From Candidatus Omnitrophota bacterium (GTDB lineage: Bacteria; Omnitrophota; Gorgyraeia; Duberdicusellales; 4484-171): a stretch of DNA of 64,000 bases. The stretch's first letter is position 1, and every line of letters starts with the position of its first letter. The stretch lies in contig JBAZGN010000002.1 of assembly GCA_041652815.1 (NCBI GenBank), positions 366,261 to 430,260 of the forward strand. Reading direction: 5' to 3'. The position numbers and the translations under genes are program-made. This document shows, piece after piece, positions 1 through 64,000 of the stretch. The notes under the pieces were generated by a model, which searched no databases, was not told the origin of the DNA, and worked only from the letters and a program-made list of their open reading frames with translations.

Positions 1-613
1 TTCTTCAGCTACAATAAGAAACGTAATGGAGACTCTGGAGAAAAAAGGGTTTCTTTCTCATATCCACACATCATCAGGGAGAGTCCCCACAACAAAGGGT
101 TTTAAACAGTACGTAGAATGTCTTAAGAAAGAAAAGATGGTAAATAATTACCCGATAGAGCTGGAATTTTATAATACAATTTCCGATAGCAGCCAGGTTA
201 TTAATAGTGCGCTGGATACTTTGGCGCTAAAAAGCGGTTATGCTTCATTTTTGGCAGTCTCTGGCGAAGGGCATAAGTTATTTTTTAGGGGCGCGCGTTT
301 TATTCTTGAGCAGCCGGAATTCGAAAACATCGTGCGGCTTAAGAGCGTTTTTTATGCTCTTGAGGTAAGATTAAATCAAATACAGGAGTTGCTACTTAAC
401 TATTTTGATGAGCAGGTAAAAATTTTGGTGGGCGATGAAATAGGTTTTGACGAAATATCGGATTGTTCGCTGGTTGTGTCTGGTTCCGGAGAAAAAAAGG
501 TTTCCTATTCACTGGCATTGCTTGGCCCGATGAGGATGGATTATGTAAGAGCTGTTTCCTGCTTGCAATCCATTAAATATCAGCTTGAAGCAATTATCGA
601 AGATAAGTTATGA
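1..613 (+). CDS. hrcA: Heat-inducible transcription repressor HrcA, C-terminal part (5' end lies off-window)
   Basis: Frame is open to the window start. VSSATIRN-like motif spans nt 2-28, then LE..G....HTSSGRVPT as in HrcA. Followed by grpE-dnaK-dnaJ. Confidence 0.8.
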
Positions 614-723
614 ACCCCGCCCTTCTAAGGCGCATTATGGTTTTTGAAAAATATAATAAATCTTACGAAAAACAAGGGTTGGGGTAAAAACAATAAATCT
701 AAAATACAAGGAGGAAGGGCGGG

Positions 724-1353
724 GTGAACGACGGTAAAGCAAAAAATAATAAAAACAACAAAGAAGAATTAGCTAAAGAAGAGAAGAAAGAAGAGCTTTG
801 CTTTCCGGTAGGCTCAGGTAAAGAAAAAAAAGAAGACTATGATGCTCTTTGGGGAAAATATACGCGGATCTGTGCGGATTTTGCTAATGCCAGAAAGCGC
901 TGGGACAGGGAAAAAGAAGACTTAATAAAATTCTCTACATCGTCGCTGATTAGAGACCTTTTAATAGTGCTTGATGAGTCAGAGCAGGCATTAAAAATGG
1001 TAAAAGAGCACGGCAATATAGAAGAAATTATAAAAGGCCTTGAAATGGCTTATAATAATTTTGTAAATCTTCTTAAAAAAAGAGGCCTTACACCTATAGA
1101 AAGTATTGGCAGGTTTTTTGACCCGCATTTACATGAAATAGTGGCAACTAAAGAAGTTGACGACTCAACAGATAAACCTATGGTTTTAGAAGAAATTCAA
1201 AAAGGTTATATGCTTGAAGATAAAGTATTACGTCCTTCAAGGGTAATTGTAGGGATTAAAAAACAGAGTACAGAGAACAGAGGGCAGAGTACAGATAACA
1301 GAGAACAGAAAACAGAAGAGGAAGAGCAAAGCCCAGAGGATAAAAAAAACTGA
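724..1353 (+). CDS. grpE: Nucleotide exchange factor GrpE
   Basis: GTG start after an AAGGAGG RBS. K/E-rich N-terminus and GrpE core. Synteny hrcA-grpE-dnaK. C-terminal low-complexity tail QSTENRGQSTDNREQ. Confidence 0.85.
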   Translation: MNDGKAKNNKNNKEELAKEEKKEELCFPVGSGKEKKEDYDALWGKYTRICADFANARKRWDREKEDLIKFSTSSLIRDLLIVLDESEQALKMVKEHGNIEEIIKGLEMAYNNFVNLLKKRGLTPIESIGRFFDPHLHEIVATKEVDDSTDKPMVLEEIQKGYMLEDKVLRPSRVIVGIKKQSTENRGQSTDNREQKTEEEEQSPEDKKN

Positions 1354-1414
1354 TCTCTGTTTTCTGTCATCTGTCGTCTGTAAACTAACCGACGAGTGAA
1401 ACGAGGAGGTTGAT

Positions 1415-3349
1415 ATGGCGAGAGTAATTGGTATAGATTTAGGAACTTCTAATTCAGCGGCAGCAGTAATGGAGGGGGATCGCCCTGTAATTCTTCCGTC
1501 AGCAGAAGGAGCGGGAGTTGCCAGCGGAAAAGCTTTTCCTTCTTTTGTTGCATTTACAAAAGACGGACAGAAACTTGTGGGTGAACCCGCAAGGCGCCAG
1601 GCTGCTATAAATCCTGAAGGAACTATTTTTGCGGCAAAACGCAAAATGGGAACAGATTATAAATTTAAGGTATTCGGCAAAGAATATACGCCTCAGCAGA
1701 TATCTGCGTTTATTTTACAAAAAATTAAACAGGACGCAGAAGCTTATCTTGGCGATAAAGTTGAAGAGGTGGTTATAACTTGCCCGGCATATTTTGACGA
1801 TAACCAAAGAACCGCCACAAAAGACGCAGGCGAAATAGCAGGGCTTAAGGTGCTTAGAATTATCAATGAGCCAACAGCCGCCTGCCTTGCTTACGGGCTT
1901 GAAAAAGCAGGAAAGGAATTAAAAATCCTGGTTTTTGACTTTGGCGGCGGAACTCTTGATGTCACCGTCATGGAGATGTGGAAAGAGGGTGGATTTAAAG
2001 TAATGGCAACAAGCGGAGATACACAGCTTGGCGGAACAGATATGGATAATGTCATAATTGATTATATTGTTAATCAATTCAAACGTGAAACAGGCATTGA
2101 TTTGCGTAATGACAAAATGGCAACGCAAAGAGTGCGCGAAGCTGCCGAAAAAGCAAAGGTAGAGCTTTCAAGCACTCTTACAACGGACATAAACCTTCCC
2201 TTTATAACCGCAGATAGCAGCGGGCCAAAACACCTTACAATGTCAATTAACCGCGCGAAAATCGAGGAATTGGTAGGTTCTATTGTAGAGCGCTGCCGCG
2301 GGCCGCTCGAGCAGGCGCTTCGCGACGCAAAAGCTGCTTTCGAAAAAGAAGGAGTAACTTTTAGCGATAAAACTGCGATAGATAAGATTATTATGGTAGG
2401 CGGCCCCACAAGAATGCCTATAGTTCAGAAATTCGTAGAAGATTATTTCGGTAAAAAAATTGAACGCGGGGTAGACCCCATGGAATGCGTTGCCTTGGGA
2501 GCAGCAGTGCAGGCAGCGATTATCAAGGGCGATGTAAAAGATGTGTTGCTTTTAGACGTAACACCCCTTTCTTTGGGTATTGAAACCTTAGGAGGAGTAA
2601 ATACCAAGCTTATAGAAAGAAATACAACTATACCTACAAGAAAATCCCAGATTTTTTCAACAGCTGCCGATAACCAGACCGCGGTTACCATACGCGTAAT
2701 ACAGGGAGAAAGGACTATGGCTGATGCCGAAGGCAATGTCGAGCTTGGCAGGTTTGATTTGGTTGGTATTCCTGCAGCACCCCGTGGAGTGCCTCAGGTT
2801 GAAGTTGCTTTCGATATAGACGCAAACGGAATCGTACATGTTTCAGCTAAAGATTTAGGCACGGGTAAAGAGCAGTCCATACGTATTACCGCTCCCAAGA
2901 AACTTTCCAAGGAAGAAATAGATAAAATGGTCCATGATGCCGAGAAATTTGCAGCTGAAGATGCGAAAAAGAAAGAAGAAGTAGAAACAGTAAACCAGGC
3001 AGACCAGCTGATTTACGCCACAGAAAAATCATTAAAAGATTATGGTGACAAAATTTCGCAAGCTGAGCGTGCCGACATTGAAGCAAAGATTAATGATTTA
3101 AAAACAGCAGTCAAAGATAAAAACGTAAATATGATTAAGAAAGGTATGGAAGATTTGACCAAAGTAGCACATAAGCTTGCTGAAGAAATCTATAAGAATG
3201 CATCTCAAAAACAGCAAGAACAAGGAAAGGCTAAGAGTGAGGCAGGCCCACAGGCTGGCCCTCAGGCCGGGCCAACCCAGGAAGCTCCAGAGCCGGAGAA
3301 GAAAGAGGATATTATCGACGCGGACTTTAAGGAAGAAGATAAGAAATAG
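1415..3349 (+). CDS. dnaK: Chaperone DnaK (Hsp70)
   Basis: [18 protein letters not shown] and VTIRV motifs; 644 aa. Confidence 0.97.
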
Positions 3350-3443
3350 CTATCAGCCATCAGTCGTCAGCTCTCAGCCCCCCCTAAGGGGCGCCCGTAA
3401 AGGGTGGCTGATAGCTGAAAGCTGACAGCTGATAACTGAAACA

Positions 3444-4565: not shown

Positions 4566-4690
4566 TCGCGAATATTCGCGAATTTAAACCTTGATAGTTT
4601 GATTAAGGTATAAACGCGAATACACGCGAATGGAAAACAAATGTAAACAAAACTATTCGCGACCATTCGCGTTGGATTCGCGAGAATTTG
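4566..4690. repeat. Hairpin element built from ttcgcgaat/attcgcgaa words
   Basis: Includes the perfect palindrome cgcgaatattcgcg. Related elements at 6270-6488 and 10722-10808. Confidence 0.8.
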
Positions 4691-4747
4691 TGTTTAGAAA
4701 CTTGCAACTTATAGCTTTGTGTATATAATATCAGGGAGGTTTTTGTT

Positions 4748-4975: not shown

Positions 4976-5073
4976 TTGAGCCCTTAAGGTTTTTTATTAT
5001 CAGTGACTCATCCTGAGGAGCGAAGCGACGAAGGATCTCAAAACGGGACAATCAGTAAAATCTTTAAAATTTA

Positions 5074-6294
5074 ATGGCAGATATAATAAGGCCCTTCCGG
5101 GCTACACACTACAATCCTTCTTTTTTCAAAAATCTTTCTGCGTTTACTTGCCCGCCGTATGATGTTATAAGCAAAAAACAGCTTTCTTTGTTAAAAAGAA
5201 AATCTCCTTATAATTTTTCAAATATTCTTATTGCAACTAATAACGACTACAAAGAAATAGGCGAGAGGTTACGCAGCTGGATTGATAAACGGATATTGGT
5301 AGACGACCCGGCAGAGAGTATTTTCCTTTATGAACAGAGATTTAGAATCGGAACCGAGAAATATAAACGCTTCGGATTCCTTTCACTTTTGAAAATGAAT
5401 CAAAAAGGAGCAATTTTCCCTCACGAATATACTTTAAGCGCTCCGAAGGAAGACCGCAAAAAAGTAATAGAGGAAGTTGAGGCTAATTTAAGCCCGATAT
5501 TTGTGATAGCGCCGAAAAAGATTAACTATTTTCATGCGCTGCACAATCGGTATTGCACCAAAAAACCGTTCATGAGATTTAAAGATTTAGACGCGAATGA
5601 AAATCTGGTTTGGAAAATAACCGATAAGGATACGATAAAAAAAATATGTTCACAGGCAAACGGTAAAAATCTTGTGATAGCTGATGGGCACCACCGCTTT
5701 GAAGTAGCCTCCGGCTACTACAAGAGAAACAAAAGGCGTTTTAAAAACCTAAATTATATAATGAGTTACATAACAGACGCGCAGCGCGGGCTTGTAATAC
5801 TACCTACCCATAGAGTAATTTCAGTGCCGGATTTTGATGGTGCGCTTGCCACGCTTAAGCAATATTTTGATATAAAAGAAGTAAAAAACGATAATGTTCT
5901 TACAGGCCATCTTGGAAAAGAAAAAAAATTTTCCTTCGGTGTTTATAGACGGAGTAAATTCTATTTTCTGAAGTTGAAGAATGAAACTATCCTTGATAAG
6001 CTTTTCCCGGCGTCTCCCTATAAGAAACTTAATACGTATCTATTGCACCAGTTTGTTCTACCTATGCTTAAAACGGACGGTAGTATCCAATATACGCACG
6101 ACATAAAAGAAGCCGAAAAGCTGGCAGGCCACGATAAAACCGCTTTTATCTTAAAGCCGGTTAGTCTATCGGCAGTATTTGACATAGCCAATCGTGGCTA
6201 CCGCCTGCCTCAGAAATCAACATATTTTTATCCCAAAGTTTACAGCGGAATAGCCATACGAAGGTTTGCTAACGCGAATATACGCGAATTTTAA
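5074..6294 (+). CDS. DUF1015-like protein
   Basis: N-terminal M..I.PFRA.HYNP pattern resembles DUF1015. The last codons (ANANIREF) lie in the cgcgaat repeat. Confidence 0.45.
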   Translation: MADIIRPFRATHYNPSFFKNLSAFTCPPYDVISKKQLSLLKRKSPYNFSNILIATNNDYKEIGERLRSWIDKRILVDDPAESIFLYEQRFRIGTEKYKRFGFLSLLKMNQKGAIFPHEYTLSAPKEDRKKVIEEVEANLSPIFVIAPKKINYFHALHNRYCTKKPFMRFKDLDANENLVWKITDKDTIKKICSQANGKNLVIADGHHRFEVASGYYKRNKRRFKNLNYIMSYITDAQRGLVILPTHRVISVPDFDGALATLKQYFDIKEVKNDNVLTGHLGKEKKFSFGVYRRSKFYFLKLKNETILDKLFPASPYKKLNTYLLHQFVLPMLKTDGSIQYTHDIKEAEKLAGHDKTAFILKPVSLSAVFDIANRGYRLPQKSTYFYPKVYSGIAIRRFANANIREF

Positions 6295-6488
6295 CCTAAA
6301 TAGTTTATTTAGGCATAAACGCGAATATTCGTAATTAATAGGGCGCTCTGAATACTTGTTATATGCGTAAATTTGATTTATAATAAAGGCAAATATGCGC
6401 TAACGAAGTGCGATAAATTTATTCGCGTTCATTAGCGTTTGCACCTCTAATAAACATAAAGGTATAAATTCGCGACAATTAGCGTTTT
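6270..6488. repeat. Hairpin element built from cgcgaata/tattcgcg words
   Basis: Left arm overlaps the last codons of the DUF1015 gene. Confidence 0.75.
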
Positions 6489-7328
6489 ATGAGAATATTT
6501 AAAAAACCATTTCGTTATACTCTGGCAAGAAGAAGAAAGGAAATGCCTGACGGGCTTTGGAGTAAATGCCCCAGCTGTTCCCATCTTATTTTTAATAAAA
6601 TACTGCAGGAAAATTTAAAAGTGTGCCCTAAATGTAATTATCATTTTTCTCTTGTCTGCTGGGAACGCATAGAATTGCTTGTAGATGCTGATACCTTTAA
6701 GGAATTTGATAAGGATATGGAATCATTAGACCCTCTCAATTTTGCAGGGCCTAAATCCTACAAAGATAAATTAAAAGAAGATACGCAAGATACAGGATTA
6801 AAAGATGCGATAATAACCGGTGAAGCAAAAATGGACAAAAAAAATATTGCCCTGGGAGTTACCGATTCCCGTTTTATTATGGGCTCTATGGGTTCAGTAG
6901 TTGGTGAAAAAATTACCCGTCTTATAGAGTATGCTATTAGCAAAAAACTGCCGGTAATTATTGTTTCAGGTTCAGGCGGAGGAGCACGGATGTATGAGGG
7001 GTTACTTAGCCTTATGCAAATGGCAAAAACATGCGGGGCCCTTTCACGTTTAAAAGAAGCACGCTTACCATTTATTTCCGTGCTTACGCACCCGACAATG
7101 GCCGGCGTTATGGCATCGTTTGCGGGAATAGGTGATGTAATTATCGCCGAGCCGGGGGCGCTCATAGGCTTTACCGGGCCGCGGGTTATAAAACAGACGA
7201 TAAAACAGGATTTGCCTAGAGGTTTTCAAACTTCTGAATTTAACTTAGAGCATGGCCTTTTAGATATGGTGATAAGCAGAAAAGATTTAAAAGCGACTTT
7301 ATCCAAGTTATTGTATTATTTAACTTGA
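6489..7328 (+). CDS. accD: Acetyl-CoA carboxylase carboxyltransferase beta subunit
   Basis: N-terminal C4 zinc ribbon (CPSC..CPKC) and CT-beta core with GGARM. Confidence 0.9.
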   Translation: MRIFKKPFRYTLARRRKEMPDGLWSKCPSCSHLIFNKILQENLKVCPKCNYHFSLVCWERIELLVDADTFKEFDKDMESLDPLNFAGPKSYKDKLKEDTQDTGLKDAIITGEAKMDKKNIALGVTDSRFIMGSMGSVVGEKITRLIEYAISKKLPVIIVSGSGGGARMYEGLLSLMQMAKTCGALSRLKEARLPFISVLTHPTMAGVMASFAGIGDVIIAEPGALIGFTGPRVIKQTIKQDLPRGFQTSEFNLEHGLLDMVISRKDLKATLSKLLYYLT

Positions 7329-10721: not shown

Positions 10722-10808
10722 AAACGCGAATTTCCACGAATTTGGAACGAATTAACACGAATAAATTCGTGGTAATTCGTCTTGTATCCGTGGTAATTCG
10801 TGTCTAGC
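10722..10808. repeat. Hairpin element built from cacgaatt/aattcgtg words
   Basis: Four cgaat words on the left arm, three attcg words on the right. Confidence 0.75.
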
Positions 10809-12270: not shown

Positions 12271-12525
12271 TATTTAGCCATACTTACTCATTTAGGTTAC
12301 TATAGGCTAATCCATCTCTAAACAGCTATTATAAGAATCAAAATACAAATTGAGAGCGTTGAAAAACCTTTTCAACGCTCTCATCCCGAGCGTCCGCGAG
12401 GGATCTCAAAATGAATTCTCTATATAATTTTAAGATCCTTTACTTCGTTCAGGATGAGACCGTTGACTCTTTTAACGGTCTCAAATTAGTTCTACTTTAC
12501 TTGTTGGGATGATGCAGCTTTAGCT

Positions 12526-15872: not shown

Positions 15873-15875
15873 GCT

Positions 15876-15990
15876 GCCTCACGTAACAGGTAGCCTCGCC
15901 ACCATAGAAAGATATTTAGGCGAGTCCACCTGGAGTGGACGTAACACGTTTATTAAATAAGACTTGTTACCTGAAACGTGCTACGTGATA
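15876..15990. repeat. Hairpin element with acgtaacacg/acgtgctacgtgatac words
   Basis: Paralogous to 33375-33545. Confidence 0.65.
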
Positions 15991-18747: not shown

Positions 18748-18848
18748 AAGGTTACGAATGTTACGAAAGTTACGCAGGTTACGAAGGTTACAATAAACCA
18801 CGAGGTTTTAAATGTAACTTTCGTAACTTCCCGTAACCTTCGTAACCT
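18748..18848. repeat. Hairpin element built from gttacgaa/ttcgtaac words
   Basis: Related copy at 41617-41764. Confidence 0.8.
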
Positions 18849-22384: not shown

Positions 22385-22506
22385 GCAGCGATAAACAATA
22401 AATTTCTATTAATTTCTACGAATCTCTATCAATTTTAATCGAAATTGGTTGAAATTGGTTGTTTAGTAAAATTTATCTACTCTTTAAACTTAAGAGGTTT
22501 AACATC

Positions 22507-25335: not shown

Positions 25336-25357
25336 GTTTAGAATAAGTAGATTTTTC

Positions 25358-25394
25358 TAAATAGGCGCCTCATTTTGAGGCGCCTATTTTATTT
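25358..25394. terminator. Bidirectional rho-independent terminator between convergent gdhA and glnA
   Basis: aaataggcgcctcattttgaggcgcctatttt: perfect hairpin with T runs on both sides. Confidence 0.8.
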
Positions 25395-33545: not shown

Positions 33546-33570
33546 GGTAGGCGTAATTTGGAGTATTTAA

Positions 33571-36202: not shown

Positions 36203-36204
36203 TA

Positions 36205-36298: not shown

Positions 36299-36311
36299 AT
36301 AGGAGTATAAA

Positions 36312-37538: not shown

Positions 37539-37655
37539 ATAACTATCAGTTATTGGCTTTGGCTAAAAGGAAAAGCCAAACCACGGCCTTCTGGCCAGCA
37601 GTTTTCTGCTTTCAGCTGAAGACTGACGACTGAAAGCTGATAGCTATATTTAATT

Positions 37656-39437: not shown

Positions 39438-39450
39438 AAAGATAGTGGAG

Positions 39451-39603
39451 GAATAACCAAGCTCCAAGATACAATAACCAAACAATGACCAATAATCAAA
39501 TTCCAATAACCAAACAAAAAAGGACAAAACTGTTTGGTCATTGGTTATTGGATATTGGAATTTGTTTGTATCTTGTACCTTGGTTATTGGTTATTTCGTA
39601 AGC
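39451..39603. repeat. aataaccaa/ttggttatt hairpin element, copy 2
   Basis: See copy 1. Confidence 0.85.
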
Positions 39604-39638
39604 ATCTTTGTTAATCTGTGTAACAAAAGGAGGAAACA

Positions 39639-40253
39639 ATGTTCAATTTCATCATAAAAGGCGGGCCGATTATGATTCCTATTCTTCTTGGCTCGCTTTT
39701 TGGCTTTGCCATAGCCATTGAAAGATTTTTTGTTTTTAGAAAAACCCGTCTTGATACTTTTCAGTTTGTTGAAGAAGTCTTTAAAGCTTTAAAGATTAAA
39801 GATACAAGAAAAGCTTTAGAGCTTTGTGAGCGCAGCCGCCATCCGCTGGCAAGTATTTTCAAAATCGGCATCGAGCGCCGCGGGCTACCTTTAGACCGGC
39901 TTGAGAAAATTCTGGAGCAGGCAGGAAACAACCACGTTTATAAACTTGAAAAAAGGCTGGGTGCGCTTTTATCCATAGTCAGCATTGAGCCATTGCTTGG
40001 ATTTCTTGGAACAATTACCGGATTAATCCACGCTTTTATGACCTGGGAAAAAGCCGGCGCAAGTGTTACTGTGAGTTCGCTTGCCTCTGGTATCTACGAA
40101 GCAATGATTACAACCGCAGCCGGCTTAACTATCGCCATACCGCTTTATCTTTGCTATAATTATTTTATAAGCCGCATAAAAATTATCTCTAACGACCTTA
40201 CAAACCATAGTATCCAACTGCTCGAGGTAATCGCGGAAACTAAAGATAAATGA
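39639..40253 (+). CDS. MotA/TolQ/ExbB proton-channel family protein
   Basis: 3-TM protein with the conserved ExbB/TolQ C-terminal region. Confidence 0.8.
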   Translation: MFNFIIKGGPIMIPILLGSLFGFAIAIERFFVFRKTRLDTFQFVEEVFKALKIKDTRKALELCERSRHPLASIFKIGIERRGLPLDRLEKILEQAGNNHVYKLEKRLGALLSIVSIEPLLGFLGTITGLIHAFMTWEKAGASVTVSSLASGIYEAMITTAAGLTIAIPLYLCYNYFISRIKIISNDLTNHSIQLLEVIAETKDK

Positions 40254-40334: not shown

Positions 40335-40468
40335 AATAACCAAGCTCCAAGAAACAATAACCAAATAATATCCAATAACCAAATATCAATAACCAAACAT
40401 TTCTGTTTGGTTATTGGTCATTGGAACTTGGAATTTGTTTGGAACTTGTATCTTGGTTATTGGTTATT
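40335..40468. repeat. aataaccaa/ttggttatt hairpin element, copy 3
   Basis: See copy 1. Confidence 0.8.
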
Positions 40469-40597
40469 TTTATCTTAACGTAAACGTAACCCTAAGACGA
40501 AATTGGCATCGTAACCATAGCCATAACCGAATTCTTAATAGGCTTGTAGATAAAATTAGGAGAAATTTAAGTGAAAATCTCTGGAAGGCGTGAATAT

Positions 40598-41616: not shown

Positions 41617-41764
41617 GTTACGAAGGTTACGGATGTTACGAGGGTTACGAAAGTTACCCTTAAACCGCGTGTTTTATTGTAACCTCCGTAACTTAATTCT
41701 TCCGCCTCCGGCGGAAGAATTAACGTAACCAGACTGCCGTAGGCAGGCGCGTAACCTTCGTAAC
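41617..41764. repeat. Hairpin element built from gttacgaa/ttcgtaac words
   Basis: Related to 18748-18848. Confidence 0.8.
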
Positions 41765-41766
41765 AA

Positions 41767-41800
41767 AAAAAAGAGGAGCCAAAAAAGCTCCTCTTTTTTA
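41767..41800. terminator. Bidirectional terminator hairpin
   Basis: aaaaaagaggagccaaaaaagctcctctttttt. Confidence 0.7.
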
Positions 41801-42247: not shown

Positions 42248-42398
42248 GGCATCTGCAGAAAGGTATTTAATGTGTCGTTGATCCAGCGACAGTTAACGCA
42301 AAGTTTCGCTTTAGGCCATGTTTACTGCAATGATTTTGAGTTAATGATAAACTGATGATCTGAGTTTTCGGCAAAAGGTAGAATACTCTGCAGATGCC
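42248..42398 (+). ncRNA. Candidate retron msr-msd ncRNA flanked by inverted repeats a1 (ggcatctgcag) and a2 (ctgcagatgcc); a2 overlaps the RT start
   Basis: 11-bp perfect a1/a2 inverted repeat at 42248-42258 and 42388-42398. Internal stem-loops; immediately 5' of a retron-type RT. Confidence 0.6.
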
Positions 42399-43905
42399 AA
42401 TTAATATCGACCTATCATTAAATAGAACGGAAGAAGAGCTAAGGGAATCATTTTTTTTACTGAAAACTTGCGATGATCTAGCATTACTTTTAGAAATACC
42501 TGCCTCAAAATTAACATATTATCTTTACGGCTTGCCTGAAGACAAAAAATACTATAATTTTACAATTCCGAAAAAATCTGGAGAGCAAAGAGTTATTTGT
42601 GCTCCGATAAATGGATTAAAAATTATTCAGCAGAAAATAAGCCAAGTTCTGTTTTGTATTTATAGACCAAAATCATCTGTGAATGGTTTCGTTTCAAGCA
42701 GGAATATTGTTACCAATGCAAAAGTACATTGCAATAAAAAGTTTGTTCTAAATATTGATTTAGAAAACTTTTTTCCATCGATACATTTTGGCCGGATACA
42801 AGGAATGTTTATGGCTTGGCCTTACAACTGCAATCATGAAGTAGCTAAAACATTAGCGCAAATCTGTTGTTGTAACAAAAAACTACCTCAGGGGGCACCG
42901 ACCTCGCCCATTATTTCTAATATGATTTGTAGTAAGATGGATTCAGAACTTCAGGGGTTGGCTAATAATTTCCGGTGTAGGTATACACGATACTCAGATG
43001 ACCTTACTTTTTCCACTTCTTCAGCTAAATTCCCAATAGAATTAGCAAAATATACGTTATTGTCGGGCAACAAAACACTAGTTGTGGGGGGCCATTTAAA
43101 AGAAATTATCGAAAAAAATAATGGGTTTCGAATTAATTACCGTAAAATAAGATTGCAAGAATTCAATCACAGGCAATCTGTAACAGGCATTATTACGAAT
43201 AAATTCCCCAATGTAAAAAGAAAATATGTCAGGCAAATAAGAGCAATGTTGCATGCTTGGGAAAAATTTGGACTAAAAGATGCAGAGCGTGAGTTTCGTC
43301 AAAAATTTGCTAAATGCCGCTGTCCCGCAAAGCAGTTACCATCTTTTCTTGAAGTGCTAAAAGGTAAAATAGGATTTTTAGGCATGGTAAGAGGTAAAGA
43401 TGATCCAATTTATTATTTTTTCAATTATAAATATAAAAATCTTTTGCGCCCCACATATTTAGATAAAAAAGGAGAAATAATGCAAAATAGATACGACGCT
43501 TTCATTAGTTATGCTAGTGAAGACAAAAAAAATTTTGTAATAAATTTAGCTAAAGAACTCATTAGAGAAGGTTTTGACATTTGGTTTGATGAAACTGCGA
43601 TAAAAGTTGGGGATAGTATCAGACGAAAGATAGATGAAGGTCTGACAAGATCAAGGTTCGCTATTGTTATATTTTCGGAAGCTTTTTTCAAAAAGAATTG
43701 GCCACAACATGAATTGTCTGGCTTAGTATCTCTAGAAATGAATGATGGCAGAAAACGTATACTGCCTATTTGGTACAAGATCGATAAGGAATATATAATA
43801 TCAATAAGCCCTCCATTGGCCGATATCCATGCATTAACCTTTCCACAGCAGACAATCGGGCAGATGGTGGATGAATTATCTAAAAAATTAAAAGACAAAA
43901 GCTAA
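42394..43905 (+). CDS. Retron-type reverse transcriptase fused to a C-terminal TIR domain
   Basis: Retron RT hallmarks: Y.F.IPKKSGEQRVI.AP, NAKVH (NAxxH), FFPSI, LPQGAPTSP, YTRYSDDLTFS (YxDD), SVTGIITN (VTG). C-terminus (aa ~370-503) is TIR-like: YDAFISYASEDK...IWFDE...GDSI...SRFAIVIFSE.F..K.W...EL. Confidence 0.85.
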   Translation: MPINIDLSLNRTEEELRESFFLLKTCDDLALLLEIPASKLTYYLYGLPEDKKYYNFTIPKKSGEQRVICAPINGLKIIQQKISQVLFCIYRPKSSVNGFVSSRNIVTNAKVHCNKKFVLNIDLENFFPSIHFGRIQGMFMAWPYNCNHEVAKTLAQICCCNKKLPQGAPTSPIISNMICSKMDSELQGLANNFRCRYTRYSDDLTFSTSSAKFPIELAKYTLLSGNKTLVVGGHLKEIIEKNNGFRINYRKIRLQEFNHRQSVTGIITNKFPNVKRKYVRQIRAMLHAWEKFGLKDAEREFRQKFAKCRCPAKQLPSFLEVLKGKIGFLGMVRGKDDPIYYFFNYKYKNLLRPTYLDKKGEIMQNRYDAFISYASEDKKNFVINLAKELIREGFDIWFDETAIKVGDSIRRKIDEGLTRSRFAIVIFSEAFFKKNWPQHELSGLVSLEMNDGRKRILPIWYKIDKEYIISISPPLADIHALTFPQQTIGQMVDELSKKLKDKS

Positions 43906-44978
43906 TGAATAGTACATTATTAGATTTTAGTGAAGCATTAAAGCAAGCTGTAAATATTGGTGGAAAGAAACAGCTGTTTTTGGGCAACGGATTTAGCATA
44001 GCTTGTTATCCAGGCTTTGAATACGGCACATTATATGAACAAGCTAAAAATAGCGGGCTCTCTAAACATTTAGATGAGCTTTTAAAAAGATATGGTAACA
44101 ATTTTGAAGATGTATTGAAATACCTTGATGAAGGAATGTTTTTGGCGGAGCATTACTATTTAAAAAAAAGTAAAAAAACTAATAGAGACATGGCTCAAGA
44201 TTACAAGGAACTTAAAGAGGCGTTAATAACGACAATAAGTGATAATCACCCTGATTATCCTAGCAGGATATCTAAAAATAAGTTTGAAAGTTGTATAAAA
44301 TTTTTAAGAAATTTTGATGCGGCTTTTACTGTGAATTATGATTTGCTTTTATATTGGGCTTCTTTGCATATTGACGAAAGTAAGGGCGAAGAGTTTCCAT
44401 TCTCTGATGGCTTCGGAAGAGAAGATGATGCTGCGAATCCCGATTGTTCTTTTTCCTATTCGAGCATGAGCTCGAAGCCATATTTATTTTTTCTACACGG
44501 CGCCTTGCATCTTTATACAAAAGACGGACATGTTTGGAAGCGTGTTTGGAATACTACAGGCATCCCAATCATTAAATGCGTTAGAGAAGCTTTTAGCAAA
44601 AAGAGTTACCCATTAGTGGTGACTGAAGGCAAATCTCTTGATAAACTTAAGAAGATTGAAAGTAGTAGCTATTTATCTCAAGCATATAGAAAATTCAAAA
44701 ATATCCAGGGGCATCTTTTTATTTTTGGACATTCGCTTAGTGAACAAGATAATCATATACTTAATGCAATAATTTGCTCAGAAAAATTTAAACTTACGCA
44801 TCTTTGGATAGGAATACATGGAGATTCAAATTCTGCTCATAACAAAAATATAATTGCGAAAGCATCTTTCTTAAGAATGAAAAGAGAAGAGCTCATTCCA
44901 AAAAAACTTAAATCTAAAGGCGAAGGTGAATTAAATATTGGATTTTTCGATAGTGCCTCAGCGCATATTTGGGATTAA
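43905..44978 (+). CDS. SIR2-family (SIR2_2/DHS-like NAD-binding) protein, probable effector
   Basis: LFLGNGFS (GAGxS-like), TVNYDLLL (TTNYDxLLE-like), LHGALH (KLHG-like) and IFGHSLSEQD (GYSl.D) motifs. 1-nt start/stop overlap with the RT-TIR gene. Confidence 0.7.
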   Translation: MNSTLLDFSEALKQAVNIGGKKQLFLGNGFSIACYPGFEYGTLYEQAKNSGLSKHLDELLKRYGNNFEDVLKYLDEGMFLAEHYYLKKSKKTNRDMAQDYKELKEALITTISDNHPDYPSRISKNKFESCIKFLRNFDAAFTVNYDLLLYWASLHIDESKGEEFPFSDGFGREDDAANPDCSFSYSSMSSKPYLFFLHGALHLYTKDGHVWKRVWNTTGIPIIKCVREAFSKKSYPLVVTEGKSLDKLKKIESSSYLSQAYRKFKNIQGHLFIFGHSLSEQDNHILNAIICSEKFKLTHLWIGIHGDSNSAHNKNIIAKASFLRMKREELIPKKLKSKGEGELNIGFFDSASAHIWD

Positions 44979-45199
44979 TCTAAAAAGGTAATTTCAGGGA
45001 CACAATACTTAATTATTTGACCGCACCATTTTTCCACAGTAAAATACCCGCAAGTTCCGGGGCGTAGGGAAACATACAATTTGGAGTTAACATCAAAGCG
45101 TCGGGAAACCGACGCTTTTTAATTAAACCAAAATTAATTATTGTATTCCTGTAATACCGAAATGGGTACAATAGAAGTAATTTTATAAAGAATAAATCA

Positions 45200-46531: not shown

Positions 46532-46607
46532 CCAGTGATAATGGGGTCAGACCTCAAGATTAGAAACTAATCGGGTCAGGCCTCACCCTTAGCAGGGAGA
46601 GACCCTT

Positions 46608-46760
46608 CGACTCGCTTCGCTCGCTCAGGGTTAATTCGCACTATCATTTTTCCTGCGCCACTATTGGCTTGGAAAAATGATGTGCTCATTAGATTTCACA
46701 ACCGCCGGTTTTTAGTTAACCTAAATCCTACCGCGTAGGTGGGCTTTAGGTTGATATTAC
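46608..46760. repeat. ~150-bp cassette-junction module (cgctcagggttaattcg...ccattattggcttggaaaaatg...ttaacctaaatccNaccgcgtaggtgg hairpin)
   Basis: Near-identical copy at 48972-49140; partial copies at 47200-47230 and 53045-53085. Confidence 0.8.
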
Positions 46761-48130: not shown

Positions 48131-48416
48131 AAGTTCAATAACTCCGATGGCACAATGGAATTCCGGGGGCACAATACTTAATCATTTGACCACACTTTTT
48201 TCCGGCAGTGAAGCTTTCAAGCGAAACCCTGCCTCGAACCAGAATGAATTCGGTTCAGGGCAGCCCTAAATCGACCTTCGGTCTGGTTTGGCGGCTGAAC
48301 CGTACAGAACCTATACTGGTTCTGGACTGGTTCAGGGGTAAAATACCAGCAAGTTCACGGGTGTTAGTTTTTTATTCAATAATCAAAAGTTAACATTAGC
48401 CATATAATAAAAAAAT

Positions 48417-48971: not shown

Positions 48972-49140
48972 GTCGCTCAGGGTTAATTCGTGCTAACATT
49001 TTTCTTGCCCGCTTCGCCAAGCGAAGCGAGGCGAGCGCCATTATTGGCTTGAAAAATGTTGCACTCATTAATTTCCCGCAGTAAAATACCCACAACTTTC
49101 AAATTAACCTAAATCCCACCGCGTAGGTGGAATTTAAGGG
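48972..49140. repeat. Cassette-junction module, second copy
   Basis: See 46608-46760. Confidence 0.8.
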
Positions 49141-51670: not shown

Positions 51671-51796
51671 AAATAGAGGAATTCCGGGGCACAATATTTA
51701 ATATTTTTTTTACGCTTATTAACCTAAAAACCTACAATCTAATAACCAAAATCATTGACCGCTGTATTTTCCCGCAGTAGAATAATTTCAATTCTG

Positions 51797-52984: not shown

Positions 52985-53135
52985 GAGTAAAATGTATAAT
53001 AGGGTTAAGCCTTCAGATGCCAGATAAATAAAAGGCCACGTTTTGCTGGCGCCTAACGGGTTAATTCACGCTATCATTTTTCTACGTGCAGGGAGCACTT
53101 GGAAAATTGCAAGTTTCATTAAATGGAGGGTCAAA

Positions 53136-56048: not shown

Positions 56049-56187
56049 AAGATCCCAAAATCATCGACCATCAAATTTTTGCGCAGTAAAATATTTCTAA
56101 TTGCGAGGCGTTACAGGCATTCATACAATCAGGAGTTGACATCAATGTTTAATGCTAGGTGATTTTGTTTATAAACAACCAGGAGGC

Positions 56188-56733: not shown

Positions 56734-56955
56734 ATAGAAAAAAGGATAGTGGGGTTAGGTTTTCAGGTGTCAGACATATTCCAAAATTCCACCTTGACCA
56801 CCCAATTTCTGTGGAGTAAAATATTTCCAATTGTGAAGCGTTAAGTGCATTCATACAATTAGGAGTTAGCATCAAAGCGTTGGGCAACCAGCGCTTTTTG
56901 ATTATAAGTAGATAATAAGATTAAGCTGCTCCGCAGCCAAAATAACGAGGGAAGA

Positions 56956-58056: not shown

Positions 58057-58229
58057 TCCCTTTGCCAGAAATCCACGGGCACGCCTGCCTTCGGCAGTCA
58101 GGCCCGTGCGGGCTCCAGATTAAAAAATTCTCTTCCATAATTTTTTGACGCTTAACGGGGATAATTCGAATAAAATAATTTTTCTGGCAGGAAGCCTGAA
58201 AGATAGCAAGTCTCATTAGGAGGTGGGGA

Positions 58230-61244: not shown

Positions 61245-62483
61245 ATGGCGAAAAGGTTCTTTGTTAAGCAATTTACTGCAGGAAGTTGTTATTCCTATAT
61301 AATTTCTTCAATCGGCGAAGCGCTGGTTATTGATCCCCACATAAGTTTATTAAAAAATTACGAAAGTTATTTAGTTAAAAACAATTTGAAATTGAAAATT
61401 ATTGTGGATACGCATACTCACGCCGACCATTTTTCTTTGGCAGCGGTTTTAAAGAAAAAATATGGAGCTAAAGTTTTAATGGGAGAAAAAGCAATATCAA
61501 GCGTTCGAGATATAAGCCTTAAGAACAATGATGAAGCAAAAATCAGCGAGGTAAGTTTGCGTGTTTTATACACTCCGGGGCATACCGATGATGCGATAAG
61601 CCTTTTTGGAGAAAAAACTTTATTTACAGGTGATGTTCTTTTAATTGGAAGCGTTGGTAGGGCTGATTTTCAAAATGGTTCGCCTGAATCTATGTTTGAT
61701 ACTTTACAGAGATTAAAGGAACTGCCTGATGATACAGTTGTATTTCCCGGGCACGATTATCATGAAAAACTTTCCTCAACTATTTCCAGGGAAAAGAACA
61801 AAAACCCATATTTGCAGGAAGAAAACAAAGAGGCATTTGTCCGGAATATGCGCGCAAAACAAATCCCAAAGCCTTTTAACATTGATAATATTATTCGAGT
61901 AAACCGGAAAGGGGAAGCTGTTACTTTGGAAATGATTTCTCCCCGCGACGCGCAAAGTTTGGCGCAAAACGATTCTAACGCAAAGTTTCTCGATGTACGG
62001 AGTGCCTTTGAGTTTGTTCAAATGCATATTAAAGATTCGATTAACATTCCGATAGATATGCTTGGCGCAAAAATTGATGATTTAAGCAAGGCCGACAATA
62101 AGTATATTGTTTTTTGCCGTACCGGAAACCGTTCGCCCATGGCCGCGGATATGCTTATTCAGGCAGGTTTGCATAATGTTAAGGTTATGGATGGAGGAAT
62201 CACCAGCTGGCAGAAAGAAAGATTGCCGGTTATAAAAGGAGAAGGCGGAATATCGCTTGAGCGCCAGGTAAGGCTTCTCGCCGGCTCATTTGTTCTGGTG
62301 GGCCTACTTTTGTATTGGTTTCTACACCCTGCTTTTGTGATTATCCCTATTTTTGTTTCCTGCGGATTAATCTACTCGGGCTTAAGCGATAATTGTCTTA
62401 TGGGTATGCTGCTTATGAAGCTTCCTTATAATAAAAAGCTTTATAAAACCAAATTAGGCGGCGGTACTTGTTCTGTAAGCTAA
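61245..62483 (+). CDS. MBL-fold hydrolase-rhodanese fusion with C-terminal DUF2892-like TM domain (persulfide-dioxygenase-like)
   Basis: HTHADH metal motif, rhodanese CRTGNRS active-site loop, C-terminal hydrophobic domain. Confidence 0.75.
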   Translation: MAKRFFVKQFTAGSCYSYIISSIGEALVIDPHISLLKNYESYLVKNNLKLKIIVDTHTHADHFSLAAVLKKKYGAKVLMGEKAISSVRDISLKNNDEAKISEVSLRVLYTPGHTDDAISLFGEKTLFTGDVLLIGSVGRADFQNGSPESMFDTLQRLKELPDDTVVFPGHDYHEKLSSTISREKNKNPYLQEENKEAFVRNMRAKQIPKPFNIDNIIRVNRKGEAVTLEMISPRDAQSLAQNDSNAKFLDVRSAFEFVQMHIKDSINIPIDMLGAKIDDLSKADNKYIVFCRTGNRSPMAADMLIQAGLHNVKVMDGGITSWQKERLPVIKGEGGISLERQVRLLAGSFVLVGLLLYWFLHPAFVIIPIFVSCGLIYSGLSDNCLMGMLLMKLPYNKKLYKTKLGGGTCSVS

Positions 62484-62509
62484 TATGCCCTTCTATTTTT
62501 TTATTTTGA

Positions 62510-63070
62510 TTGTATAATAACGCTATGTTTTCCTTCATAAAAATTCCGGCAAGATTTTTGAGTTTTCTTCTGGGTTTACGCATTACCAGTGGAGATGTGG
62601 CGCTTGGCGTTTGCCTGGGAATGTTTCTGGGCTTTGTTCCTTTGAACAAGGCAATGGCGCTATTTTTACTTTTGCTTTTCATAATAATACGCTTAAACCG
62701 TTTGACCGCCTTGATTGTTCTTCCTTTTTTTAAATTACTTTATATTATCGGTATAAGTAATTTAACCGACAAAATAGGCGAATACTTACTGGTTGATGCC
62801 AAATATCTTACAAATTTCTGGAGCTGGTTTACGTCGCAACCGATAATTGCGCTGCTTGATTTTAATAACACGCTTGTTTGCGGAGGCATAGCGTTTTCGC
62901 TCATTTTGTCCCCGTTTGTTTACTTTATTTCAAGAACGCTATATACGATTTATGTTGAAAAATACGTAAGAAACTTTCGGCAATCGAAATTTATAAAAAC
63001 AATTACAAAGAATAATTTTATAAATAGGATAGTTCTGGCTATGGAAGGTATCAGGGATAAGGCTGAATGA
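62510..63070 (+). CDS. DUF2062-like membrane protein
   Basis: Hydrophobic; family assignment tentative. Confidence 0.4.
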   Translation: MYNNAMFSFIKIPARFLSFLLGLRITSGDVALGVCLGMFLGFVPLNKAMALFLLLLFIIIRLNRLTALIVLPFFKLLYIIGISNLTDKIGEYLLVDAKYLTNFWSWFTSQPIIALLDFNNTLVCGGIAFSLILSPFVYFISRTLYTIYVEKYVRNFRQSKFIKTITKNNFINRIVLAMEGIRDKAE

Positions 63071-64000
63071 TTAAATATTTAAACCTTATAAAAATTTCGA
63101 TAATTCTGGTTATGCTTGTTGTATTTAATTTTGCAATAGGCTTGTTCATCTCTCCCGCCGTAACGCAATTTATAATAGCCCAACTGAATAAGAATACTGC
63201 CGCAAAAATATCTATTGATAAGGCGCAAGTCTGGCCTTTAACGTTAAGCGTTAAGCTGATTAACCTTAAAATATTTGACACGGATGATGTTAAAAAACGT
63301 ATTCTTAGTGTACCTGAAGCTTCCTGCCGATTGAGCCTTTTAGGAATTCTTTCAAAGCGGGCAGTTATATCGCATGCTGTATTAAATGATGCGGAAATTT
63401 CTCTTGAGAGAAGAGAAGATGGGTCTTTTAATATCCAGAATATCATTAAGCACAAACTGCCGTCAAAGGCGACGGAAAAACCCGTAGATATGGAAACGCC
63501 CAAGAAAGAAAATACATTAAGCGGTGCGTATAATGTAATCAAGGATATTTTTTCCAAAAAACACGCAGAGGAAGCCGCGCAAAAAAGGAAAGAAGATAAA
63601 CGGGTAACTGAAACAATAGAAAACCTTCCTCAGGGAAAGCTCGTTCATTTTAAAACCGTAAAGTATCTTTTGGAAATAGTCGATTTGGATTTTAATAACG
63701 CGGCAGTTTCTTTCAAAACAGCCGAAGGTAATACCATAGAGATAACTAAAGCAAAAATACAGCTGCGAGATTTTGCCTTTGACCCGAAACTTGGGATGCA
63801 GCTTGGCGGTTTCATAATCAATGCAACGCTGTCAAAAGATAAAATAACTCTTGGCGGCATATCGGCCAAAGGAACAATCCGCTATGTTCATGATGAGCCT
63901 AATGTGAATTTAGATATACAGCTTACGGAAGTTAACCCAAAACCCTTAGAATTCATTTACCGGGATTCTTTGCCGGTTACAATTGAAAAAGGAAGAATTA
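63067..64000 (+). CDS. AsmA-like membrane-anchored protein, N-terminal part (runs off window)
   Basis: ATG at 63067 with an open frame to the window end. N-terminal TM. Resembles 58230-59042. Absent from the ORF track only because no stop lies in the window. Confidence 0.5.
   Translation, partial: MIKYLNLIKISIILVMLVVFNFAIGLFISPAVTQFIIAQLNKNTAAKISIDKAQVWPLTLSVKLINLKIFDTDDVKKRILSVPEASCRLSLLGILSKRAVISHAVLNDAEISLERREDGSFNIQNIIKHKLPSKATEKPVDMETPKKENTLSGAYNVIKDIFSKKHAEEAAQKRKEDKRVTETIENLPQGKLVHFKTVKYLLEIVDLDFNNAAVSFKTAEGNTIEITKAKIQLRDFAFDPKLGMQLGGFIINATLSKDKITLGGISAKGTIRYVHDEPNVNLDIQLTEVNPKPLEFIYRDSLPVTIEKGRI

Follow-up and report, generated by a model that had tools for sequence, protein, structure and literature searches.

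Long imperfect hairpins, whose arms are built from short tandem words, occupy 17 intergenic spacers of the 64-kb stretch of Candidatus Omnitrophota DNA analysed here (the window). We hold, with modest confidence, that these word hairpins are dispersed foldback palindromes of a MITE- or REPIN-like kind, which have been reshaped by slippage and are co-transcribed as intercistronic stem-loops. The left arm consists of 3-8 tandem copies of a 7-11-nt word, the commonest period being 7, and the right arm of the reverse-complement word. Elements measure about 70-160 nt, or up to about 260 nt where nested (Table 1). Here, as in many relatives, they fill spacers between co-directional genes that are otherwise of near-zero length, and at two loci the 3' end of the preceding ORF contains the left arm (1262-1353 in grpE and 35605-35638 in the NuoB-like gene).

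Word hairpins in the window

Every hairpin listed in a first-pass annotation of the window was found in place by direct reading and TRF, and its expectation that these regions would be more self-complementary than shuffled sequence was borne out. A word detector, which requires two or more tandem occurrences of a 6-mer (spacing 5-16) and, at most 200 nt further on, at least two tandem reverse-complement copies, returned 11 loci against 0.06 +/- 0.24 expected from 100 block-wise dinucleotide shuffles; with 5-mers, 17 loci were found against 3.0 +/- 1.7 in such shuffles. MFE z-scores against dinucleotide shuffles range from -4.0 to -11.8 in 15 of the 17 regions, the two weak folders being 22385-22462 (z -1.6) and the composite 6268-6490 (z -2.9). 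The tracts in the window have TRF periods of 7, 9, 10 and 11, and at least 10 of the 14 tandem tracts with a period of 6-12 and at least 80% identity are matched by a reverse-complement partner no more than 250 nt away. GTTACGNNNGTTAC alone occurs 12 times, with 0 expected.

Imperfect and diverse hairpins that follow same-orientation ORFs superficially resemble a cassette array, and could be taken for integron attC sites, CRISPR arrays or assembly artefacts. We regard these readings as scarcely credible and effectively refuted: the hairpins are flanked by core genes whose order is conserved, the hairpin termini on direct reading lack RYYYAAC / GTTRRRY cores, and TRF reveals no repeat-spacer-repeat layout, in agreement with the earlier statement that this is not a CRISPR. 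Nor are the hairpins assembly artefacts, because identical copies are present in the independent contigs L001, L344 and L345, which stem from independent assemblies and samples.

Table 1 Word hairpins of the window, with fold z-scores, other detection, and state in relatives (L numbers)
Coordinates	Element	z and detection	Context and relatives
1262-1381	ACAGAG(N) hairpin, period 7; left arm and loop within 3' end of grpE (724-1353)	-6.2; TRF	Element absent in L002; GAAGGAC-word hairpin in L005; family also in L344 nuoB-nuoC spacer (nuoB 3' end)
3347-3439	TCAGC(T)N / GCTGAnA hairpin, period 7, fills dnaK-dnaJ spacer	-5.9	Apex (3378-3407) is two GC mini-hairpins; orthologous copies in L058, in L063 (apical insert missing) and in L002 (with two different nested inserts)
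4567-4692	CGCGAAT hairpin, period about 10, 3' of dnaJ; nested mini-hairpin 4586-4609	-6.8	87.5% identity to 6273-6327 over 56 nt; L002 and L063 orthologues of ACGAAT type; L005 lacks a spacer
6271-6487	CGCGAAT family, second, composite; mini-hairpin 6293-6314	-2.9	Overlaps last codons of DUF1015 gene; absent from L063 and L005; L033 spacer has GTTTACC-word hairpin
10724-10803	ACGAATT word hairpin, period 10	-6.1; TRF, word detector	
15873-15990	ACGTAAC hairpin with nested 48-nt double mini-hairpin (15894-15940)	-4.0	Paralogue with same insert after clpB in L001; insert also alone inside L002 dnaK-dnaJ hairpin
18749-18848	GTTACGAAN element, period 9, 5 left words / 4 right words	-8.1; TRF, word detector	After EF-P gene; identity 96% to L150, 90% to L005 (non-orthologous, upstream of clpB), 90% to L346
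22395-22462	AATTTCT / GAAATTGG weak word hairpin	-1.6; TRF, word detector	Marginal because of its low fold z
33401-33547	Outer stem 33401-33431 / 33535-33547 around ACGTAAC / GTAGCAT period-7 hairpin (about 33437-33520)	-4.1; TRF	Replaces last codons of MnhD-like gene; genes abut in L346
35002-35154	AATAACC / TTGGTTA element, copy 1, period 7	-10.0	96% to copy 2; genes overlap in L346
35605-35720	GAAACCA hairpin, period 7; left arm within 3' end of NuoB-like gene	-4.0; TRF, word detector	ACAGAG-family hairpin in L344; ACGTAA-type hairpin in L346
36203-36294	GCGGATATCC(GC) hairpin, period 10, word self-palindromic	-8.5; TRF, word detector	Identical in L344 and L345; genes overlap in L346
37539-37647	TCAGCT hairpin with nested insert 37555-37596	-5.0	Insert reverse-complemented in L058 dnaK-dnaJ hairpin; AGATGCT-word hairpin in L346
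39452-39604	AATAACC element, copy 2	-8.6	Absent from L346; TAAACGC-word hairpin in L344
40272-40529	Outer hairpin GGTTATGGTAACAGTAACG ... CGTAACCATAGCCATAACCG; AATAACC copy 3 (40335-40469) in its loop	-11.8 (inner); -3.5 (outer stem alone, inner element deleted)	Spacer of 3 nt in L346
40998-41066	GGCAGAT word hairpin, period 7	-6.1; TRF, word detector	
41617-41764	GTTACGAAN element, copy 2, orientation opposite to 18749	-7.3	Two GC mini-hairpins (41693-41723, 41734-41746) nested in one arm; same family at orthologous position in L346

Families and dispersal

The words had been described as locus-specific, a view that does not hold, as the 64 kb contain five families that recur, several of which are also present in other genomes. 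The word families are GTTACGAAN, AATAACC, TCAGCTN, CGCGAAT, ACGTAAC and ACAGAGN, and family copies at non-orthologous loci in this and other Omnitrophota genomes are 90-96% identical, while the flanking genes are only 70-85% identical. Dispersal of this kind was found in the window and in about 1.1 Mb of relatives, which is the only sequence against which the earlier claim of a genome-wide distribution has been tested. The three AATAACC copies of the window have sharp borders and unrelated flanks (96% and 82% identity), and a further copy lies in L044. The outer word hairpin that surrounds the third of these copies was missing from the first-pass list.

The GTTACG family is represented by five copies in four genomes, located after EF-P, after a PBP gene and before clpB, with 90-96% identity against 70-83% for coding DNA. 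Its left arm is identical at 44/44 positions between the window and L005, where coding DNA is about 74% identical; arms are more conserved within a family than the neighbouring genes, contrary to the 'rapidly evolving word content' first supposed. Both orientations occur in this family, and the right arm of 18749-18848 has 4 words where the other copies have 5. In several hairpins of the window and its relatives one element is nested within another, and the composite of an ACGTAAC hairpin with its 48-nt insert is found at two loci.

A purely local origin would have seed slippage and template switching between arms generate the hairpins, with selection retaining them as intercistronic RNA structure and no mobility involved. 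Whole-word indels between copies would follow from it, as would the presence of different words in the same spacer in different lineages, and both the prevalence of period 7, which recalls the heptamer simple-sequence repeats of many prokaryotes (PMC4679880, PMC4692102), and the enrichment of hairpins between dnaK and dnaJ would be in its favour. We nevertheless consider it unlikely, given that the near-identity of non-orthologous copies takes in the 'variable' linker bases as well as some of the loop, that the AATAACC copies are so sharply bordered, that a hairpin and its insert recur together as a composite, and that intermediates between families at one spacer are absent. Slippage, which had been offered as an origin, is kept in our reading as a secondary process only, manifest in the whole-word indels.

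Orthologous spacers in relatives

At orthologous positions the spacers of relatives are empty, with genes abutting or overlapping, or hold a hairpin of the same or of a different family, so that words are conserved in some and replaced in others. L346, which has the same operon order, has overlapping or abutting genes at five hairpin junctions, other families at two and the same family at one. L344, in which the flanks are about 91% identical, carries different families at two spacers; it may be a chimeric metagenome contig. The spacers of the dnaK operon likewise differ among the window, L002, L063 and L005. These differences stem from wholesale swaps for another family, and not from word drift. 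Some filled and empty sites differ over the whole spacer and not as a clean insertion, which counts against an insertion reading.

The replacement or absence of elements at junctions of one and the same operon also bears on whether the word arrays are binding sites for specific proteins, either DNA sites of the iteron or operator type or targets of RNA-binding oligomers, with identical arrays forming a regulon. Divergent loops are set between invariant arms, and phage contigs show the same direct-then-inverted architecture in iteron-like GTTACGnnn arrays, as such sites might. We find the proposal improbable: the 15 or more words that occur over some 80 kb of related sequence would call for equally many proteins, the arrays occur in either orientation, TAACTGA shows no enrichment in the window, where 9 matches compare with 7 expected, and a spacing of 7-9 bp would, from B-DNA geometry, place successive sites off one helix face.

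Transcription and the dnaK-dnaJ spacer

The first-pass annotation had set the hairpins apart from ordinary terminators, correctly in our view, and had still suggested a terminator role for them, which we do not support. It is very improbable that they are unusual intrinsic (factor-independent) terminators or attenuators that dispense with a U-tract, even though they start at, or a few bases from, stop codons and the hairpin after dnaJ is followed by a conserved promoter-like site (TTGCAA-17-TATAAT) and by a T-rich stretch downstream. No T-tract follows the stems, and most hairpins lie within conserved operons (dnaK-dnaJ and the Mrp/Mbh-like hydrogenase operon). The genome's own terminators consist of a GC stem and a T-run, e.g., at 25355-25390 and 41765-41799, and the latter directly adjoins a word hairpin, as it does in L346. 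In the 30-50 kb stretch that was scanned, not one +-strand terminator-like match fell on a word hairpin.

Since they lie inside operons and have no U-tract, the elements would be transcribed as long imperfect intercistronic stem-loops. Both strands fold equally well, with 51 G-U pairs on the sense and 55 on the antisense strand and energy differences that go both ways, a symmetry from which no selection on the sense transcript can be read. Covariation is not available because the arms are nearly invariant, and an RNA role is therefore unsupported by the evolution of the structure. The one observation that points to a role at the RNA level, in protection or processing of the mRNA 3' end, is a bias towards the dnaK-dnaJ spacer. 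The length of this spacer is bimodal: 34 genomes have less than 45 nt and 28 have 52-151 nt. Among these 28 long spacers, 25 have a fold z < -3, and at least ten different words are used in them. Folding at this threshold is found between dnaK and dnaJ in about 40% of genomes, compared with 71/808 (9%) of co-directional spacers overall, a roughly five-fold enrichment.

A model for the spread of word hairpins

We tentatively propose the following model. The elements would spread as DNA through a trans-acting activity, which probably recognises hairpins or structure, in a manner resembling that of MITEs, REPINs and ERICs but without target-site duplications. Replication slippage could then alter the number of words, while template switching in the palindrome, or recombination between arms, may maintain the match between the arms and can invert the element. 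The likeliest effect on the host would be REP- or ERIC-like, namely protection of the 3' end of the upstream cistron and/or provision of an RNase III-type processing site. If so, neighbouring cistrons would be uncoupled in their expression, e.g., dnaK above dnaJ.

The hairpin-MITE family suggested at first, shorn of its evolving words, gives the best fit to the near-identical non-orthologous copies, sharp borders, nesting, both orientations and empty sites. Classical MITEs descend from few IS types, and it is unusual, and counts against a classical MITE, that at least 15 word families share one architecture. Neither a target-site duplication nor a shared terminal motif is visible in the AATAACC and GTTACG copies. 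The window yielded no transposase or other gene for mobilisation, and no locus was found at which matching word arms flank a gene.

Comparison with known systems

The word hairpins are akin to known heptamer- and palindromic-repeat elements of cyanobacteria, Xanthomonas and E. coli, of which this variation is new. The STRR sequences that Mazel reportedly described in 1990 are said to be heptamer tandem repeats of cyanobacteria. The small dispersed repeats (SDR) of Nostoc, reportedly the subject of Elhai and colleagues in 2008, are said to be very small hairpin-forming elements nested in other repeats; the 13-48 nt GC mini-hairpins in our word arms look analogous.

Three tandem heptanucleotides are recorded for Calothrix (PMC4692102), and TAACTGA repeats for Beggiatoaceae (MacGregor 2015, PMC4679880). 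The word hairpins share with STRR and TAACTGA repeats an intergenic location, a period of 7, head-to-tail arrangement in 2-6 or more units, a position often directly upstream of start codons or overlapping the end of the upstream ORF, strain differences in 7-nt steps and a patchy occurrence across phyla (PMC4679880). In the window, L063 and L078, the dnaK-dnaJ hairpin has a right arm of TAACTGA/CAACTGA-type repeats, which abut the dnaJ start. Whereas BOGUAY has 169 direct sets and one inverted set (PMC4679880), nearly every tract here has an inverted partner. The window, as noted, has no excess of TAACTGA.

Convergent (inverted) pairs are also formed by the GGGAATC heptamers of Xanthomonas (Rehm et al. 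2015, PMC4692102), where an intergenic tandem heptamer with a nearby complementary array could likewise form a stem-loop or cruciform. Unit number varies there between related genomes while the repeat type (single or inverted pair) is usually preserved (PMC4692102). Xanthomonas, however, has one G-rich word per genome, investigated for quadruplex formation, against at least 11 different, mostly non-G-rich words in the 64 kb here, with periods of 7-11, nesting, and the copying of whole elements, loop included, from locus to locus and from genome to genome.

REP/REPIN-RAYT, ERIC, Correia and other MITE-like palindromic repeats (PMC3116915, PMC2817692, PMC3733652, PMC10969869) are small, non-coding, intergenic imperfect palindromes that are dispersed in many copies, often inside transcription units, can adopt a long hairpin fold, receive further insertions and are present or absent between relatives, all of which applies to the word hairpins. 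For REPs, a part in mRNA stabilisation and termination has been hypothesised in this literature. Judged against them, the word hairpins differ in their tandem-repetitive arms, their many coexisting families and their lack of a GTAG/CGTC head and of TA or other target duplications; the search for mobilising genes, which covered the window, identified no RAYT or IS partner. The eukaryotic transposons of the Foldback/Galileo type reach kilobase size, and their full-length copies carry a known P-superfamily transposase (PMC3573991), to which no equivalent was found here. They are also described there as having long terminal inverted repeats built of short tandem subrepeats, and in this shared construction they are structurally the closest to the word hairpins.

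Abundance and folding of the word hairpins

Reading of the intergenic spacers confirmed every hairpin that the first-pass annotation had listed, each with one arm built from tandem copies of a short word and the other from its reverse complement. These word hairpins measure 70-260 nt, need no ORF and consist entirely of their complementary arms; the periods assigned by TRF in the spacers are 7 (the commonest), 9, 10 and 11. Our strict detector, which calls a 6-mer present at least twice in tandem and then, within 200 nt, at least two tandem copies of its reverse complement, finds 11 loci in the window, where block-wise shuffling of dinucleotides gives 0.06 ± 0.24. A 5-mer version finds 17 loci against 3.0 ± 1.7. 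Such word and tract detectors replaced a blastn-based inverted-repeat finder, which missed most hairpins, and a noisy seed-chaining palindrome finder. For at least 10 of the 14 tandem tracts of period 6-12 in the window, an inverted partner lies close by.

Scored for fold energy against dinucleotide shuffles, 15 of the 17 regions folded have z between -4 and -12, the weak folds being the marginal AATTTCT locus (22395-22462, z -1.6) and the composite at 6268-6490 (z -2.9). Half of the mid-length spacers in the window (16/32) are strong hairpins with z < -3. Strong local periodicity, in which period 7 prevails, marks 13 of the 71 spacers with a hairpin compared with 2 of the 157 without one. We reject the reading of the hairpins as assembly artefacts because three independent contigs (L001, from the window's own genome, L344 and L345) carry identical hairpins, base for base.

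Positions of the features discussed (window coordinates unless a contig is named; single numbers are start positions)
Feature	Position	Remarks
hrcA-grpE-dnaK-dnaJ and housekeeping genes		in window
Mrp/Mbh-like hydrogenase operon	28.6-39.4 kb	
Variable region	42 kb onward	
Reverse transcriptase-TIR domain fusion, then DUF4917/AbiH-like protein	42394-44978	fusion of 503 aa
AATAACC hairpins	35002, 39452, 40335	
GTTACG hairpins	18749, 41617	
CGCGAAT hairpins	4567, 6271	
ACGTAAC hairpins	15873, 33401	
48-nt double mini-hairpin	15894-15940; L001 ~2895-2945; L002 dnaK-dnaJ spacer	cctcgccacc..aggcgag + tccac..gtgga
GIY-YIG nuclease gene	34377-34667	96 aa
11-nt inverted repeats of the GIY-YIG unit	34383-34393 / 34653-34663	CCAGCCCTTCC / GGAAGGGCTGG
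Gene-less 110-nt derivative	614-723	ends CCCGCCCTTC / GAAGGGCGGG; flanks ATGAAC / GTGAAC
Candidate 5'-UTR RNA motif	46628-46702, 48980-49078, 53058-53130, 58158-58225; L010 11984-12052; L046 3612-3705	
Modular block before small ORFs	44985-45125, 48154-48372, 51686-51793, 56055-56174, 56796-56904	
Short GC-rich motifs	4976-5073, 12380-12420, 35722-35740, 46600-46625	GAGCGAAGCGA / TCGCTTCGCTC and CTCATCC..GGATCTCA

Recurrence of word families at unrelated sites

The proposal that each word is specific to its locus does not hold, as families recur at non-orthologous sites. The three AATAACC copies in the window (identities 96% and 82%) have unrelated flanks and sharp borders, and another copy is found in contig L044. 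The GTTACGAAN element of the GTTACG family has two copies in the window; others precede clpB in L005, follow the PBP gene in L346 and lie in the metagenome contig L150, giving five copies in four genomes with pairwise identities of 90-96%. Several copies agree base for base over the 44-nt left arm, the 'variable' linker bases included. The coding DNA of these genomes matches the window at no more than 70-83% identity, and the sites in L005 and at 18749 are non-orthologous. The CGCGAAT family recurs within the window, and ACGTAAC recurs both there and after clpB in L001. Two ACGTAAC copies have the same 48-nt insert nested in them, which indicates that hairpin and insert were copied as a unit. 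The ACAGAG hairpin is found at the 3' end of grpE in the window and at the 3' end of nuoB in L344. At least 11 words occur in the 64 kb.

A metagenome scan for GTTACGnnn x3 returned mainly coding repeats or high-GC iteron-like arrays, L150 being the sole true family member. Among the viral contigs L202-L317 (e.g., L226 733-900 and L219 4945-5100) and L319-L343, many phage contigs have GTTACGnnn x3 and, 60-120 nt further on, CGTAACnnn x3, with an AT-rich or CACGCGCG core enclosed between them, and these arrays look like replication-origin or operator iterons. One group of high-GC phages has TTGGTTA heptamer runs beside GCATTGCGTTCGC repeats. Both types of phage array have the same architecture, yet are unrelated elements and were rejected as family members.

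Other features of the window

The window belongs to a metagenome-assembled Candidatus Omnitrophota genome: its DnaK protein also occurs on ENA contigs of sample ERZ27247363, and in a species-level genome collection the nearest relatives of this protein are almost exclusively from Omnitrophota MAGs. The window has a G+C content of about 39%, and its + strand holds nearly all genes. At the start of the variable region, the reverse transcriptase-TIR and DUF4917/AbiH-like genes form a defence-type pair. The GIY-YIG nuclease gene lies precisely at the start codon of the gene that follows, where there is an ATGAAC ... GTGAAT duplication. It therefore takes over the ATG of the host gene and provides a GTG in its place; in L346 this junction lacks the nuclease gene. 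The 110-nt derivative, whose ends are similar, separates hrcA and grpE in the window though not in L002 or L005, and the two together look like a small mobile gene with a miniature derivative.

In the candidate 5'-UTR motif, the single-stranded flanks GGGTTAATTC and CTCATTA are conserved and the hairpin that they enclose varies in sequence, with both-side changes in 6 of 10 stem pairs. It precedes small ORFs and a cold-shock-like gene, and dnaJ in relatives, and has no Rfam match. The modular blocks at 45-58 kb combine a promoter-like TTGACC-17-TAAAAT site with a leader, CATACAATTnGGAGTT..CATCAA, and further repeated blocks (ATAACGGGnTCAGGCCTTCAGATG) lie at gene 3' ends. The GC-rich spacer motifs are not word hairpins. 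A scan of the window found no tRNA or tmRNA, Rfam hits ranked by E-value over 44.9-58.3 kb contained nothing meaningful, and exact-protein look-ups of the EF-P and NuoC-like genes were empty.

Turnover in orthologous spacers

The first-pass annotation had left it to relatives to show whether words are conserved or replaced, and both outcomes are found: the same family is kept at some orthologous junctions, while at others there is a different family or no spacer. In L346 (NuoD 86% identical, gene order as in the window), genes abut or overlap at five junctions that bear hairpins in the window, at two more the word family is a different one (ACGTAA-type and AGATGCT), and at one the GTTACG element is present as in the window, together with the canonical terminator that follows it. 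Compared with the window over 35735-39914, L344 is 100% identical across 35935-38335 (2.4 kb), with identity falling to about 91% in both flanks. It may be a chimeric metagenome contig or else a recombinant, in which co-existing strains recently exchanged a tract. Both hairpins within the identical segment are unaltered; an ACAGAG hairpin occupies the GAAACCA site of the window, and a TAAACGC-word hairpin its AATAACC site. The dnaK-region spacers of the window, L002, L063 and L005 differ likewise in hairpin content.

Across 62 Omnitrophota genomes, the length of the dnaK-dnaJ spacer is bimodal (<45 nt in 34 and 52-151 nt in 28), and 25 of the 28 long spacers fold with z < -3. About half of these strongly folding spacers are word hairpins, with at least 10 different words among them. 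Hairpin occupancy at this junction is about 40%, compared with 9% (71/808) for co-directional spacers overall, and this bias is the sole evidence here for a host benefit or for junction hot spots.

Internal anatomy

The elements occur in both orientations. The 41617 copy best matches the other GTTACG copies as its reverse complement, and 18749 and 41617 both follow + strand genes despite their opposite orientation. The third AATAACC copy forms part of the loop of a second word hairpin, and the outer stem of the latter re-forms (z -3.5) once the insert is removed. Small GC hairpins break the arms in 41617, L150, L002, L058, 15873 and 37539; in two cases the insert turns up again in other hairpins and genomes. 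The 48-nt double mini-hairpin is seen within word hairpins only, those of L002 and of the window's genome, to which L001 belongs, and other GC mini-hairpins with tetraloop-like loops, e.g., cttccgcctccggcggaag and ctgccgtaggcag, also break word arms.

GTTACG copies differ by whole words, with four words in the right arm of one and five in that of another; otherwise the arms are near-invariant across the five copies, which makes covariation uninformative. A comparison of G-U pairs gave no asymmetry (51 sense versus 55 antisense), with energy differences of both signs. Both strands fold equally well and thus give no sign that the sense transcript by itself has been under selection. The aligned flanks of three AATAACC and five GTTACG copies contain no direct repeat that would represent a target-site duplication, and no common terminal motif is visible among these copies. 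There is no transposase in the window, and a search of the window and the other loci compared, a small fraction of any genome, found no cognate autonomous IS with shared termini. Among the loci searched, none proved to have word arms on the two sides of a gene at a distance of 0.3-5 kb; the single match in the search for an autonomous element proved to be two separate hairpins flanking accD in L033.

A model for dispersal

Taken together, dispersed non-autonomous palindromic elements are a better fit than independent growth at each locus, the slippage origin that had been offered alongside a MITE-like one. Slippage is nevertheless a plausible secondary process, as is intra-palindrome template switching or recombination, and the two in combination would explain the whole-word indels, the matching of the arms and the flips. 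As the elements lie within operons and are co-transcribed with them, they most likely give rise to a stem-loop between cistrons, which would shield the 3' end upstream of it or undergo processing.

It is an unlikely but conceivable extension of the dispersal model that the mover recognises the periodic hairpin itself, and not a specific sequence, and so represents a new class of prokaryotic mobile DNA. Such a mover would account for the single architecture of many unrelated word families, for the insertion of hairpins into hairpins, and for the lack of both target duplication and terminal consensus. One candidate is an enzyme, of HUH/Y1 type or otherwise specific for single-strand hairpins, that could act on any foldback; the other is retro-copying of exonuclease-resistant mRNA 3' stem-loops. 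If true, either candidate would be previously undescribed prokaryotic mobile DNA and a general route for RNA structures into operon spacers.

Omnitrophota are an abundant, uncultivated phylum, and if our reading of dispersed elements is right, palindromic elements of recent insertion, and not regulatory sequence, make up much of their intergenic DNA. Operon-internal stem-loops that set cistron ratios would then be gained by insertion and swapped fast between close strains. Heptamer tandem repeats in cyanobacteria, Xanthomonas and Beggiatoaceae could likewise be parts of dispersed foldback elements, and their origin would thereby become testable. The elements are likely to break metagenome assemblies and should be useful as strain markers.

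Comparison with known repeats and structures

Intrinsic terminators consist of a GC-rich stem-loop with a T/U tract directly after it. The terminator role suggested by the first-pass annotation is rejected, since the stems have no T-run and the hairpins lie within operons; no + strand terminator-like match fell on a word hairpin in the scanned 30-50 kb stretch. Canonical GC-stem/T-run terminators are present elsewhere, including a separate one directly after the 41617 hairpin. Integron attC sites, a reading likewise rejected, carry R''/R' cores of the form RYYYAAC ... GTTRRRY in cassette arrays next to intI; on direct reading the termini misfit these cores, and the flanks are conserved core operons. 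CRISPRs alternate identical direct repeats with unique spacers of similar length, whereas the words here are contiguous and without spacers, bearing out the earlier exclusion of a CRISPR. An Rfam RNA family is also rejected, with no match at gathering score in the whole window.

MITEs are non-coding elements of about 50-500 bp with terminal inverted repeats, dispersed copies, a target-site duplication and a cognate IS. The elements described here are likewise small, non-coding and inverted-repeat ended, with multiple dispersed copies of high identity, but the copies of the AATAACC and GTTACG families lack flanking target-site duplications. Small dispersed repeats are described in Nostoc, and the GC mini-hairpins inside the word arms may be comparable to these. 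REP/REPIN units are 20-40 nt palindromes with a GTAG or CGTC head (PMC3733652). Termini such as AGGTTACG, AATAACCAAG, CTATCAGC and GAAGCGGAT lack these tags, and there is no RAYT (Y1 transposase) gene within the 64-kb window. The word hairpins nonetheless have their lifestyle in common with REP, REPIN, ERIC and MITE elements, which they resemble except that their arms are internally repetitive.

The arms are also like long simple-sequence or STRR-type repeats in their head-to-tail units of 5-11 nt, which form runs longer than expected by chance and are mainly intergenic (TRF, tract scan and shuffles). Such repeats use one or few words per genome (TAACTGA; GGGAATC; three STRRs), unlike the diversity of words in this stretch. 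Some right arms are TAACTGA-type repeats adjoining a start codon, as in Beggiatoaceae, but TAACTGA has no overall enrichment in the window and the link is limited to a few arms. Our literature search returned no report of such elements or of repeat content in Omnitrophota. Heptamer tandem repeats are known from cyanobacteria, Beggiatoaceae, Bacteroidetes and Xanthomonas, where they lack an explanation (PMC4679880, PMC4692102). The nearest precedent for a tandem word with its inverted word is found in Xanthomonas, in which 70-75 convergent inverted pairs of GGGAATC arrays use a single word (PMC4692102) where many are used here. The closest structural analogue is provided by the eukaryotic Foldback/Galileo elements.
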